A DNA stretch of 64,000 nucleotides, taken from Candidatus Limnocylindrales bacterium. Its GTDB lineage: Bacteria; Chloroflexota; Limnocylindria; Limnocylindrales; CSP1-4. A model generated the notes under the pieces. The model had not been told where the DNA came from and did no database searches. It was given only the letters and a program-made list of their open reading frames with translations. A program made the position numbers and the translations under genes. The DNA lies in assembly GCA_035760905.1 (NCBI GenBank), contig DASTSC010000268.1, forward strand, positions 1,411 through 65,410. Direction: 5' to 3'. Below, one piece after another: positions 33,550 through 41,231 of this stretch; positions within the stretch are counted from its first letter, which is position 1; each line of letters starts with the position of its first letter.

Positions 33550-35430
33550 GTGCGACCTCTGCGAACACTGCGGTCGCTGGCCGGCTCGGCGATCGTCGCG
33601 CTGATCGCCATCGGGCTCGTCGCGCCCGCGGAGGTCGCCGCCGCCCGGCCCGTCCCGAAGGTCGTCGTCGTCGTCGGTCCGGCGGGCGTTGCCACCGACC
33701 GCTACCGGTCCGCCGGCGACGCCGCGGCCGACGTCGCCCGACGCGCCGGCGCCGACGTCGTCGAGATCGCCTCCCCGAACGCGACCTGGCCGGCGGTCAA
33801 ACGCGCCCTCCAGGATGCCTCGATCGTCGTCTATCTCGGCCATGGCAACGGCTGGCCGTCGCGCTACCGGCCGGCGCTCTACCCGCCGACCCAGAACGGC
33901 CTCGGGCTCAATCCGGTCGCCGGGGTCGACGACAGCGCCCACCAGTACTTCGGCGAGGCGTACCTCGAGCGGTACGTGACGCTCGCCCCGAACGCGGTCG
34001 TCGTGCTCTCCCACCTCTGCTACGCGAGCGGGCTGTCGGAGCCCGGGCTGCCCGAGGGCACGCTCGACGAGGCGCGCCAGCGGGTCGACAACTTCGCCGC
34101 CGGCTGGATCGCGGCCGGTGCCCGGGCCGTCGTCGCGGAGGCGTATCTCGATCCGGCCTGGTACGTCGCCGCGGTGCTTTCCGGCCGCGGCTCGGTGGCC
34201 GCGGCCTGGCGGGCCTCCCCCACCGCGAACGGCCACGTCCTCCGCTACGCCAGCGAGCGACGGAGCGGGTACGTCGACCTGCTCGACCCGGTCCACGCGA
34301 AGGGATCGGGCTTCGAGCGCTCGCTCGTCATCCGAGGCGACCTCGCCGCCGCAGACGTCGTCGCCGCCGGGCTCGGCGCCCCCGATGGCGCCGGCCAGGT
34401 CGCGCAGCCGGCCGCACCGCCGGCTCCGACGCTCGCCTCGGTCGGGGCGACGATCACGGCGCCGACCCTCACCGGCCTTCCGGTCGCGGGCTCGACCCGA
34501 CGCCTCACGCTCCCGATCGACGTCGCCGGAAGCGACGCCGGCGCGCTCCTCGACGGGCTCGAGCTCTCGGTCCGCTGGGATCCGCTCGACGTCGCCGCAG
34601 CGAAACCCCCGGCGGCGTCCCCGACGGCGCCCCCGACGCCGTCCCCGGCGGCGTCCCCGACGCCGGCGCCGACCGAGAGCGCGGGGACGACCGGCCCGGC
34701 GGACAGCGCGGCGCCGGCCGAGGTCGACCCGTTCGCCCTCGTCGCGCCCGAGGTGCTGGGCGAGGTGGTGGACCCCGCCGCCGCGAAGGCGACGAAGGCG
34801 GGCTGGCGCATCCGGACCGTGCTGCCCGAAACGCCCGGCCTCTACTCGCTCACGGTCCGGCTCCACGACTCGACGGCAGTCGCGTTCGACGAGGCGAGCC
34901 AGGTGCTCGTGCCACGGCTCCTCGTCCGCGTGGTCTCGGCGACGTCGGCGACGATCGTGGCGCCGGCGACCGTCGACGCGACGGCCGGTTCGGCGTTCGA
35001 GCTGCCCGTCGCCGTGATGAACACCGGCAACACGGCCTGGGCCGTCCCCCAGCCCGTTGGCGCGCGGCCGGGATCGACGTCGGCGACCGTCGAGCCGGTC
35101 CGCGTCATCGCCCATTGGGTCGGTCTCGGCACCGAGGCTGGCGCGGTGCCGTCCTCACATCCGGACCCGCCGGCCGCGACCGACGGCGGAGACGCCTCCG
35201 GCACCCCGACCGACGCGAGCCTCCGCGTCTTCCGCGAGATTCGGCCGGGCGAGCGCGTCGAGGGCACGATCGCGGTCATCGCCCCGACGACGACCGGTAG
35301 CTGGCTCCTCCTCGTGGACGTCGCGACCCCGGAGACGCCCTCGCTCGTCGCGACCGGATCCGAACCCGCCCTCGTCCGGGTGACGGTCACCGCCCCCGCG
35401 ACGACGCCGTCCGACCCGAACCGATCCTGA
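33550..35430 (+). CDS. Secreted multidomain protein: N-terminal His...Cys (caspase/gingipain/clostripain-like?) domain + Pro-rich linker + Ig-like C-terminal region
   Basis: Signal peptide. The domain KVVVVVGP...IVVYLGHGNGWPS...GLGLNP...YFGEAYL...NAVVVLSHLCYASG is paralogous to the one in 40386..41231. Confidence 0.6.
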   Translation: MRPLRTLRSLAGSAIVALIAIGLVAPAEVAAARPVPKVVVVVGPAGVATDRYRSAGDAAADVARRAGADVVEIASPNATWPAVKRALQDASIVVYLGHGNGWPSRYRPALYPPTQNGLGLNPVAGVDDSAHQYFGEAYLERYVTLAPNAVVVLSHLCYASGLSEPGLPEGTLDEARQRVDNFAAGWIAAGARAVVAEAYLDPAWYVAAVLSGRGSVAAAWRASPTANGHVLRYASERRSGYVDLLDPVHAKGSGFERSLVIRGDLAAADVVAAGLGAPDGAGQVAQPAAPPAPTLASVGATITAPTLTGLPVAGSTRRLTLPIDVAGSDAGALLDGLELSVRWDPLDVAAAKPPAASPTAPPTPSPAASPTPAPTESAGTTGPADSAAPAEVDPFALVAPEVLGEVVDPAAAKATKAGWRIRTVLPETPGLYSLTVRLHDSTAVAFDEASQVLVPRLLVRVVSATSATIVAPATVDATAGSAFELPVAVMNTGNTAWAVPQPVGARPGSTSATVEPVRVIAHWVGLGTEAGAVPSSHPDPPAATDGGDASGTPTDASLRVFREIRPGERVEGTIAVIAPTTTGSWLLLVDVATPETPSLVATGSEPALVRVTVTAPATTPSDPNRS

Positions 35431-35451
35431 CGCGGGCGCCCGGCGGCCTCG

Positions 35452-35832
35452 TCAGGCTGCTGCCTCCGCTGTGTCGACCTCGACCTCGATGAGGGGGCTG
35501 TCACGGACCATCGTCTCGAGATCGGTCCGGTTCCAGGCGCGAGCGACATGGCGGAGGATCGCTCTCCGCTCCTCCTCGTCGACGATCACCCGGGCGATCG
35601 CGGGCACGTCCGCCCGGACGTCGCCCTTCAGGTGGATCGTCAGCCGCGGGTTCGCCTCGAGGTTGGCCAGCCAGGCCCGCTTTCGCGGCCGCGGGACGCC
35701 GGAGATGTAGAGCCGTCCATCGATCACGTGGGTGACGATCTCGATCCGGCGTGGCGCTCGCGTGCGCCGCCCGATCGTCGTCATGTCGATGACCCGGGGC
35801 TCCCCGAGCGCGGTTCGAATGTCGTCGTTCAT
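35452..35832 (-). CDS. Deazaflavin (F420H2)-dependent nitroreductase family protein (DUF385/PNPOx-like)
   Basis: RRIEIVTHVIDGRLYISGVPRPRKRAWLANLEANPRLTIHLKGD matches the DUF385 family core. Confidence 0.75.
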   Translation of the reverse strand: MNDDIRTALGEPRVIDMTTIGRRTRAPRRIEIVTHVIDGRLYISGVPRPRKRAWLANLEANPRLTIHLKGDVRADVPAIARVIVDEEERRAILRHVARAWNRTDLETMVRDSPLIEVEVDTAEAAA

Positions 35833-39998: not shown

Positions 39999-40385
39999 CC
40001 GGGGCGACGCTCGCCCGGGGGCCGGCCCGGCCGTCAGGAGCCGGCGCATGCGACATCCGTCGAGTCCGCCGCCCGCCGTTCGGACGCTCCGATCGGCGAC
40101 GCCCGTCCGCGGACCGGCGGCGCAGGCTCGTCGACCATTCGGGCATCGAGACCGGCGGCCGTCACCAGGGCGACCGGATCGAGGACGACCGAAAGGAGGC
40201 CGCCATGTCTGCCGGATACGCGACGTACCAGCCCGAGGCGAGCGGGATCTTCCCGACGGTTCTCCTGCTGGTCGTGCTGATCCTGACCGCGCTCGGCGTC
40301 GTCGCTCACGCGGCGTTCGTCTAGATCGAAGCGGCCCCGCCTCGTCGGCGGGGCCTTCGGTCGTTCGGTGGCTGGATTTCCCGGG

Positions 40386-41231
40386 CTATCGCCAGTCGGC
40401 GGCGGTCATCCCGAGCTTGCCGACGAGCGAGTGATAGAAGTGATCGTGGTGGCTCGGGTCGAGCATGCCTCGCGCCCAACCGGTCCGACCTGAGTCGAAC
40501 GATCCGACCCAGTTCCCGTTGTAGGCCGGGTCCGTGCGGAAGATCCGGCGCATCGTCCGGTTCGTCCGGAACAGGTCGTGGATGACGTGGTGGACCGAGT
40601 CGATCGCCGTCGCGAAGACCGCCTTGGCTCCGGCGTGGAGGAAGCCGTAGCCGAAGTTGTCGACCCGCTTTCGAGCCGTCTTCCGAGTCGGGTAGCCGGA
40701 GCCCCACTCGTTGTTGCCCGACGCGTAGCAGAGCCGGTTGAGGATGACGACCGCGTTCGTCGCCATCTGGACCTTCGTGTCGAGGTAGTACTCGCCGTAG
40801 TACTTGGTGTTCGAGTTGCCGTTGTCGGCGCTCGCGTTGAGCCCCAGCCCGTCCTTCGTGTAGGGATTGAACGGGTAGTAGGGGCTCGGCCAGCCGTTCC
40901 CGTGGCCGAGGTAGATCAGGAGGTTCGCCCCCTGGAGGGCGCGCTTGACGCGCCGCCATGTCGCGCGGGGGCTGTAGATCTCGGTCACGGAGGCGCCGAG
41001 CGAGCGGGCGTAGTCGGCGTAGCGCCGGGCGCTGTCCCTGTAGTCGCTCGTCTGCGACCCGACCGGTCCGACGACCACGACGACCTTCTTCGAGGACGCG
41101 CTCGCCGTGGCCGGCACGGCCAGCAGACCGACGAGGGCGAGGGACGACGCGAGGAGCGCGACCGTGCGGCCGGCCGCGGGTCGTCCCGATGCGGAGGGCG
41201 CCCCCTGGGCACCGTGGTGAAACAGCCGCAA
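40386..41231 (-). CDS. Secreted protein with His...Cys peptidase-like domain (paralog of 33550..35430 N-domain)
   Basis: TTG start with AAGGGAGGAGG RBS 7 nt upstream. Signal peptide (...VALLASSLALVGLLAVPATASA). Domain KKVVVVVGP...LLIYLGHGNGWPS...GLGLN...YYGEYYL...NAVVILNRLCYASG. Confidence 0.6.
   Translation of the reverse strand: MRLFHHGAQGAPSASGRPAAGRTVALLASSLALVGLLAVPATASASSKKVVVVVGPVGSQTSDYRDSARRYADYARSLGASVTEIYSPRATWRRVKRALQGANLLIYLGHGNGWPSPYYPFNPYTKDGLGLNASADNGNSNTKYYGEYYLDTKVQMATNAVVILNRLCYASGNNEWGSGYPTRKTARKRVDNFGYGFLHAGAKAVFATAIDSVHHVIHDLFRTNRTMRRIFRTDPAYNGNWVGSFDSGRTGWARGMLDPSHHDHFYHSLVGKLGMTAADWR

Follow-up and report, generated by a model that had tools for sequence, protein, structure and literature searches.

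A 64,000-nucleotide stretch of DNA from a Candidatus Limnocylindrales bacterium (GenBank assembly GCA_035760905.1, contig DASTSC010000268.1, positions 1,411 to 65,410 of the forward strand; hereafter the window) carries two open reading frames (ORFs), called here ORF A and ORF B, whose products are probably paralogous members of a large, unannotated and nearly Limnocylindria-specific family of secreted cysteine hydrolases with a clan CD fold, for which proteins or peptides of the cell envelope are the likeliest substrates. By analogy with known enzymes, we infer that both products would be Sec-secreted Cys/His amidohydrolases acting in the envelope, with Cys168 (ORF B) or Cys157 (ORF A) as the nucleophile and His110 or His98, respectively, as the general base. 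The host order belongs to the class Ca. Limnocylindria of the phylum Chloroflexota. Limnocylindria are abundant in soils and lakes and uncultured, and their cell envelope is almost unstudied.

ORF A, the long paralogue, occupies 33550..35430 on the plus strand (GTG start, 626 amino acids (aa)) and would consist of a signal peptide, a clan-CD-like domain and beta-sandwich domains. ORF B, the short paralogue, lies at 40386..41231 on the minus strand (TTG start, 281 aa) and would comprise a signal peptide and the clan-CD-like domain only. The ORF list bears out the coordinates given for both genes in the original prediction, which had described them as secreted paralogues with a conserved His...Cys domain, and places ORF B on the minus strand with a length of 281 aa. 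The two proteins are paralogous, with a similarity far beyond chance, as BLASTP aligned 222 aa at 44% identity (E=9e-50). The sharing of an N-terminal domain was therefore correctly seen, and the common domain, delimited by the family hidden Markov model (HMM) and profile alignment, spans about 236 aa (B 46-281 and A 35-270), above the 200 aa or so first estimated. All of the sequence blocks quoted at that time are present, namely KVVVVVGP, YLGHGNGWPS, GLGLN, YFGEAYL/YYGEYYL, NAVVVL/NAVVIL and LCYASG.

Predicted fold and position of the conserved His and Cys

A model of ORF B was built with AlphaFold2 (AF2) on an alignment of 82 sequences. The predicted local distance difference test score (pLDDT) was 84 overall and about 95 over residues 50-281, which cover nearly all of the clan-CD-like domain (aa 46-281; 40389..41096, minus strand). 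DSSP assigned the elements b1 (49-54), a1 (58-77), b2 (81-86), a2 (92-99), b3 (104-108), a small beta section (129-132/142-145), a3 (147-153), b4 (160-165), a4 (183-199), b5 (202-208) and a5 (214-222), followed by more strands. In clan CD enzymes, a six-stranded sheet is combined with five helices, a small beta section separates b3 from a3, and b3 and b4 bear at their C-terminal ends the His and the Cys, respectively (PMC4357240). The ORF B model shows the clan CD element order b1-a1-b2-a2-b3-[small beta]-a3-b4-a4-b5-a5-b6, with His110 two residues past b3 and Cys168 three residues past b4. The proposed catalytic His110 belongs to the G109-H110-G111 motif (codon at 40902..40904, minus strand) and the proposed nucleophile Cys168 to the LCYASG motif (codon at 40728..40730, minus strand); both codons were checked.

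Foldseek comparison of this model with the PDB returned clan CD structures at all of ranks 1-15, including SAVED-CHAT 8tl0 (E=1e-4), RgpB 1cvr (4e-4), caspase-4 and caspase-1, the separases 5fby, 5fc3 and 5u1s, and the C11 structure 6nag. In the BFVD viral structure library, the top named matches were giant-virus metacaspases. A better match to a non-catalytic family, for instance a substrate-binding fold, would have told against a peptidase, and none outranked the clan CD peptidases.

Flavodoxin-like folds appeared for the first time at PDB rank 16 and, together with NQO1-like structures, populate the list from there (E 0.03-0.1). These matches, and weak Pfam matches to Glyco_transf_4 in 10 of the 82 alignment members, would be expected of a non-hydrolytic domain with a flavodoxin-like or Rossmann-like fold, serving in binding or redox reactions and using the conserved His and Cys for structure or as ligands of a metal or cofactor. 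We consider this most unlikely, as clan CD structures rank higher in both libraries, no cofactor-binding motif was seen, and the combination of Gly-His-Gly with a Cys after a hydrophobic strand resembles the clan CD signature and aligns with the gingipain catalytic His. A role as nucleophile can also be argued because the secreted protein has a single, invariant and unpaired Cys. The Glyco_transf_4 matches themselves, which fall on the VVVVVGP strand region, were rejected as a family assignment since Foldseek returned no GT-B structure. Mean-field direct coupling analysis of the pairing between b3 and b4 (363 sequences, Meff 153) was dominated by gap artefacts and discarded.

The model therefore supports a caspase-hemoglobinase (clan CD) fold for the ORF B domain, the positions of the His and Cys being taken from topology and alignment. 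As far as the model indicates, the likeness is at the level of fold or clan and not of family membership.

Sequence similarity to the gingipain family

The commonest sub-threshold Pfam matches of the catalytic domain among the 82 alignment members were Peptidase_C50 (10/82; 14.6 bits vs a cut-off of 27.8 bits), which covers B 61-113 and ends at the GHG, and Peptidase_C25 (PF01364; 4/82, best E=0.14), for which the gathering score was not reached. CHAT (PF12770) gave no Pfam match at E<=1 in the 82 members. Searches of PDB sequences, whether started from ORF B or from the family profile, yielded nothing relevant, and PADLOC yielded no match. Nor was any Pfam or NCBIfam model matched by the domain at threshold. 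In short, family-level membership of C25, C14, C50 or CHAT was not found.

Profile comparisons were carried out with hhalign, using for gingipain R the sequence of 1cvr_A (the gingipain R sequence was verified against 1cvr_A and 4ief_B). The family profile, made of 108 sequences, aligned with RgpB alone at P=8e-4 and with the C25 profile at a score of 38.2 (P=1.3e-4). Controls remained lower, with scores of 9.6-22.5 for 30 column-shuffled C25 profiles, 12.5 for the reversed profile and 9-20 for six unrelated proteins of the window. Residues 55-111 of ORF B were aligned to RgpB 153-212 (57 columns), element by element through the end of b1, a1, b2, a2 and b3. The C25 alignment ends with YLGHG on YTGHG, which places His110 on His211 and G109/G111 on Gly210/Gly212. 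At the level of profile alignment, these results show that the domain is homologous to gingipains as far as the putative catalytic His. The clan CD resemblance suggested in the original prediction is thus supported by the model, by Foldseek in the PDB and BFVD, by the strand positions of the His and Cys and by the alignment of the GHG with gingipain Gly210-His211-Gly212.

Several observations count against this assignment. The similarity seen with Foldseek is modest, with E-values of 1e-4 to 1e-2 and TM-scores of 0.3-0.38, and the order of the core sheet is common to flavodoxin-like folds, which stand lower in the Foldseek list. No clan CD model of Pfam or NCBIfam reached its threshold with ORF A, ORF B or the 82 alignment members. 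The significance of the C25 comparison stops at the His, the Cys half alone giving a non-significant P=0.036. With hhalign, five human caspases (unverified sequences) scored 13.7, which is at the level of the shuffled controls, and human legumain (likewise an unverified sequence) gave P=0.21, i.e. noise, the best local path pairing b1-a1 with b1-a1. The clan CD motifs are His-Gly and Ala-Cys, each after a hydrophobic block (PMC12445089). The first is fully matched by LLIYL-G-H-G, and in the second, AVVILNR-L-C, the hydrophobic block is kept but Leu-Cys replaces the classic Ala-Cys (Leu in 94 and Ala in 7 of 108 sequences). Finally, the genes neighbouring ORF A, ORF B and their relatives give no hint of function, and no operon partner was found.

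A large family nearly restricted to Limnocylindria

Word-seeded searches recovered at least 2439 relatives for ORF B and at least 1768 for ORF A. Wherever a name is given, it is 'hypothetical protein', and precomputed Pfam domains are absent throughout. Among 1.84 billion representatives at 50% identity, an exhaustive phmmer search retrieved 1132 clusters (E<=1e-3), of which 380 reach E<=1e-30. Long C-terminal extensions, up to 1118 aa, are common among them. At least 586 loci encode a relative in bacterial and archaeal assemblies taken at one genome per species. The best 80 of these comprise 78 titled Limnocylindria, Chloroflexota or 'Chloroflexia', the other two being titled Verrucomicrobiia and Saccharimonadales. 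Plasmids and phages gave no match by tblastn, and no earlier description of the family was found in the literature. The family is thus large, nearly restricted to Limnocylindria and without annotation.

Conservation was counted on 391 aligned domains and on a non-redundant set of 108 sequences at 70% identity. The two residues singled out from the start as a conserved His...Cys pair proved to be kept almost throughout, His110 in 387/389 and Cys168 in 387/390 of the aligned domains. In the non-redundant set, G109, G111, G113, P115, Y169, G172 and R189 are 100% conserved, E175, N192, S247, R249 and D258 are conserved at 94% or more, and the position two residues before the Cys (Cys-2) is His in 74 sequences and Arg in 24. 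Exactly one Cys is present in 101 of the 108 domains, and the whole ORF A and ORF B proteins also have one Cys each. In ORF A, the corresponding codons, which were likewise checked, are those of the proposed catalytic His98 (GHG; 33841..33843, plus strand), invariant in the ORF A family, and of the proposed nucleophile Cys157 (LCYASG; 34018..34020, plus strand), which is conserved. Rare relatives have Arg or Gln in place of His110, or Pro or Ser in place of Cys168; these may be pseudo-enzymes or reflect sequencing or assembly errors.

Predicted secretion, wall-binding modules and possible substrates

The presence of signal peptides in both proteins, already proposed from the letters, agrees with our own reading of the sequences, in which basic residues and a hydrophobic stretch precede AAA|R in ORF A and ASA|S in ORF B. 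The predicted Sec signal peptide of ORF A covers aa 1-32 (...AEVAAA|RP; 33550..33645, plus strand), with a helix at 6-23 in the model and a cleavage site deduced from sequence features, and that of ORF B covers aa 1-45 (...PATASA|SS; 41097..41231, minus strand), where residues 1-44 have a pLDDT<50. From these features, both proteins would be exported by Sec and their N-terminal signal peptide removed. No prodomain is expected because b1 starts 3-4 residues past the predicted cleavage site.

The AF2 model of ORF A (pLDDT 82) consists of an N-terminal helix, the catalytic domain at 36-275 and two sandwich units at about 296-465 and 466-615. The clan-CD-like domain, aa 35-270 according to the family HMM envelope (33652..34359, plus strand), is predicted to have the same order of secondary structures as ORF B. 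The C-terminal region, aa ~296-615 (34435..35394, plus strand), is of the Ig/MG/FN3-like beta-sandwich type, as judged from the AF2 strands and Foldseek, which matched the sandwiches to MG domains of CD109 and alpha-2-macroglobulin, to C-terminal barrels of transglutaminases and to RbmA. Sub-threshold N_BRCA1_IG matches were found for this region in 14 of the 82 alignment members. A Pro-rich stalk and Ig-like domains had been proposed for ORF A. The Pro-rich segment and the beta-sandwich domains are indeed there, but in the model the segment does not directly follow the catalytic domain as a stalk. From its pLDDT and composition, it would be a Pro/Ala/Ser/Thr-rich disordered loop within the first sandwich region (aa 351-406; 34600..34767, plus strand; pLDDT<50 at 366-391 and 399-406).

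Other extensions are found in the long relatives. In 85 of them, Pfam identified FlgD_ig (26), CHU_C-like (13), SH3_3 (7), CW_binding_2 (5), Big_13 (5), SH3_4 (4) and SLH (1) domains, with three CW_binding_2 repeats in P0139 (E=1.5e-55). These fusions were seen in P0130, P0139 and other long relatives, so that the domain is recurrently combined with modules of the cell surface and the cell wall. One further long relative has a beta-helix or pectate-lyase-like region, and one a match to dTDP-sugar isomerase, possibly a fusion of gene calls. Because of their SH3b, CWB2, SLH and Ig-like modules, the long members are placed at the cell wall. ORF A and ORF B themselves have no recognised wall-binding module.

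The same modules raise the question of the substrate. With the same fold and the same Cys/His chemistry, the enzymes could act on peptidoglycan, as lineage-specific murein endopeptidases or amidases (autolysins) cutting stem peptides or cross-links. SH3b, CWB2 and SLH modules, which are typical companions of murein hydrolases, are fused in 13 to 17 of the 85 long relatives, and genomes contain several paralogues with different targeting modules, in addition to a syntenic core copy. The conserved polar residues E175, R189, N192, S247, R249 and D258 would also fit a single, invariant small substrate. Another point in the same direction comes from the NCBIfam equivalog model NF052336 'peptidoglycan hydrolase', which weakly matched 9 of the 82 members (best E=3e-4). 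The register is consistent between them, and the matched part, positions 1-110 of the 316 in the model, runs from the signal peptide through b1 to the GHG. On ORF B this match covers aa 26-124 (40860..41156 of the window, minus strand), and it was also found in P0025 and P0042. These matches, however, reach only 14-16 bits vs a cut-off of 500 bits, include the signal peptide and are absent in 27 other close homologues, and a literature search found no protein behind the model. Furthermore, no clan CD family covered in PMC4357240 and PMC12445089 acts on murein, and SH3b and CWB2 also anchor true proteases, such as the wall-localised Cwp84 of C. difficile (PMC12445089). We therefore judge a murein substrate to be a serious but clearly less probable alternative. 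The more specific proposal that the family is the first caspase-fold (clan CD) peptidoglycan hydrolase, a Limnocylindria core autolysin or murein endopeptidase in the role of NlpC/P60, CHAP or M23 enzymes, is somewhat more doubtful still. If so, the housekeeping role would fall to ORF B as the conserved copy, and ORF A and the paralogues fused to SH3b, CWB2 or SLH would be differently targeted versions.

By contrast, envelope or surface proteins, or peptides, are the substrates we favour, because the characterised clan CD enzymes described in PMC4357240 and PMC12445089 are peptidases, with GPI8 and PorU as transamidase relatives. These relatives suggest another activity. Like PorU and GPI8, the proteins could be sortase-like transpeptidases that remove a sorting signal from the C-terminus of a protein and pass this protein on to an acceptor in the envelope rather than to water. 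The kinship of PorU with the gingipain catalytic domain can be detected in sequence, C25 is the only significant profile link of the family, and the location would be extracytoplasmic and wall-associated. On the other hand, ORF B has no membrane anchor, genes for a partner or a substrate are absent from the conserved neighbourhoods, a conserved sorting signal was not identified, and the proposal is one of pure analogy, so that we regard it as very unlikely. Hydrolysis of envelope proteins or peptides thus remains our preferred reading, with murein stem peptides as the main alternative substrate.

Proposed mechanism

According to the model, each mature domain would form an alpha/beta/alpha sandwich with the element order of caspases, in which a Gly-His-Gly loop that follows beta3 contains His110 or His98, and Cys168 or Cys157 comes after beta4. 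If the chemistry is that of gingipain, caspases and separase, the thiolate of the Cys would attack the carbonyl of the peptide bond while the His would serve as general acid/base. The glycines flanking the His would be equivalent to RgpB Gly210 and Gly212, which contact the P1 residue through hydrogen bonds, and specificity may be set chiefly by this residue, as in the related enzymes.

The specificity pocket should not resemble that of gingipain because no Asp is present at the position equivalent to Asp163. In the alignment, this residue, which confers Arg specificity on RgpB, has only a gap opposite it, between Tyr64 and residue 65 of ORF B; residues 62-65 contain no conserved acid in the 108-sequence set, and no acidic S1 residue of the Asp163 type was thus found at the start of a1. 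Conserved residues that may line the pocket are Tyr64, the His/Arg at Cys-2, Ser247, Arg249 and Glu175.

As the domain fusions suggest, the site of action would be the cell wall or the cell surface. ORF B would act as a minimal, unattached enzyme, and its gene belongs to the syntenic core of the class, whereas the two beta-sandwich modules of ORF A would either hold the enzyme away from the envelope or attach it to the envelope. Other members would use SH3b, CWB2 or SLH wall-binding modules instead.

Gene structure and genomic context

ORF A is identical to P0271, i.e. VFS32_13250 of a metagenome-assembled genome (MAG) named 'Candidatus Limnocylindrales bacterium', and ORF B is identical to P0001, i.e. 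VFS32_13275 of the same MAG. The G+C content of the window is about 73%. In ORF A, the G+C content at codon positions 1/2/3 is 0.75/0.60/0.93, and the sequence AGGGGG lies ahead of the GTG at 33540-33545. The stop-to-stop frame of ORF B extends to 41558. Since the third-position G+C content is 0.92 within 40386..41231 vs 0.62 upstream, and since the ribosome-binding site GGGAGGAGG (41239-41247, minus strand) is located 8 nt ahead of the TTG, the 281-aa version was retained as the ORF B gene.

Due to the high G+C content, the region 31684..43941 also contains long stop-free antisense or off-frame ORFs, for example one of 671 aa opposite ORF A (33100..35115, minus strand) and one of 963 aa over the histidine kinase gene described below. 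They are considered non-coding because their translations are rich in Arg, Pro and Gly, and the two that were checked are without the high third-position G+C of the real genes.

ORF B orthologues are arranged head-to-head with a DEAD-box helicase gene (DEAD/Helicase_C; 41808..43085, plus strand, in the window) at 77 of the 77 related loci with enough flanking sequence, even where protein identity is 51-60%; because this arrangement is kept throughout, ORF B is regarded as a syntenic core gene. The two genes are separated by a spacer of 576 bp (41232..41807), which lies within the 2-kb bin of lowest G+C content in the window (0.697, 40001-42000). A regulatory region shared by ORF B and the helicase gene was considered and rejected, the spacer DNA being conserved only in close relatives and having no Rfam match.

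ORF A and ORF B are close to each other only in the two nearest relatives. In the window, they are separated by four unrelated genes, coding for an F420H2-dependent reductase-like protein, a GAF/DUF4118 histidine kinase, an HhH-GPD glycosylase and an MBL-fold hydrolase. Upstream of ORF A and divergent from it is a gene for an ArsA-type ATPase with a C-terminal HSP20-like domain (PF02374 and PF17886; 32207..33406, minus strand). Among 84 related loci, each with an ORF B relative at its centre, 1 has a neighbour of this type, and neither of the two ORF A-like loci inspected has it. In distant genomes, ORF A-like genes are flanked by different genes, for example one for a DsbH-like thioredoxin.

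A hydrophobic ORF of 39 aa, MSAGYATYQPEASGIFPTVLLLVVLILTALGVVAHAAFV, lies tail-to-tail with ORF B (40205..40324, plus strand). It is a gene call in three other assemblies of the locus, is detectable by tblastn at 11 loci and has no Pfam match; the numbering of the locus tags implies that it is unannotated in the source MAG. It may encode a small membrane protein.

Comparison with known systems

The assignment to clan CD would give a testable function to thousands of 'hypothetical' database entries. A compact secreted enzyme of the caspase fold, with about 236 aa, no prodomain and a single Cys, should be easy to express and to probe, and if its substrate were murein, it would represent a new combination of chemistry and fold in cell-wall remodelling.

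Among known systems, the gingipains (C25/PF01364; RgpB 1cvr, PorU) have the same fold (Foldseek rank 2, E=4e-4) and are the sole family with a significant profile-profile link (P=1.3e-4); in both cases, the proteins are secreted and Ig-like domains follow. Differences are nevertheless numerous. Besides the Arg-specificity residue discussed above, ORF A and ORF B lack an N-terminal prodomain and the first sub-domain of gingipain, their His and Cys are separated by 58 residues instead of 33, with an extra beta-hairpin, and the Cys is found in Leu-Cys-Tyr instead of Ala-Cys-Val, in a region that cannot be confidently aligned. The host is a member of the Chloroflexota, without a type IX secretion context.

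The top structural match was to the CHAT proteases (SAVED-CHAT of CBASS-type defence, 8tl0; HetF; Csx29), with E=1e-4, a probability of 1.00 and 210 aligned columns, and the logic of the His/Cys dyad would be the same. CHAT proteases are, however, regulated cytoplasmic effectors fused to sensors, whereas proteins of the ORF A/ORF B kind would be secreted and stand-alone enzymes, with wall-binding or Ig modules. Separase (C50), caspases and metacaspases (C14) and the C11 clostripain-like enzymes also have the same fold and element order (PDB ranks 3-15; BFVD), the caspases with the small beta section between b3 and a3. Here again differences exist, since ORF A and ORF B are predicted to be extracellular and show neither an evident inter-subunit linker nor an evident site of autoprocessing. 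Cys-2 is occupied by His or Arg and not by Gln (Gln184 of caspase-7) or Asp (Asp211 of TbMCA2, Asp462 of MALT1), and the motif (H/R)-L-C-Y-A-S-G is not of the QACxG or DSCHSG type, with no Pfam match to C14. The nearest relatives are gingipain, CHAT and separase rather than animal caspases.

The long relatives also recall wall-anchored hydrolases such as Cwp84 of C. difficile, LytC-type amidases and NlpC/P60-SH3b proteins, in that an N-terminal Cys hydrolase domain is followed by wall-binding repeats. This is an analogy of architecture only, as the catalytic domains are unrelated (clan CA papain-like, Amidase_3 and NlpC/P60 vs the caspase fold).

In March 2025, MEROPS clan CD comprised eight families, C11, C123, C13, C14, C25, C50, C80 and C84 (PMC12445089). 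The clan-CD-type assignment would add a candidate family to this clan, and the domain of ORF A and ORF B would then constitute a further, lineage-restricted clan CD family, closest to C25.

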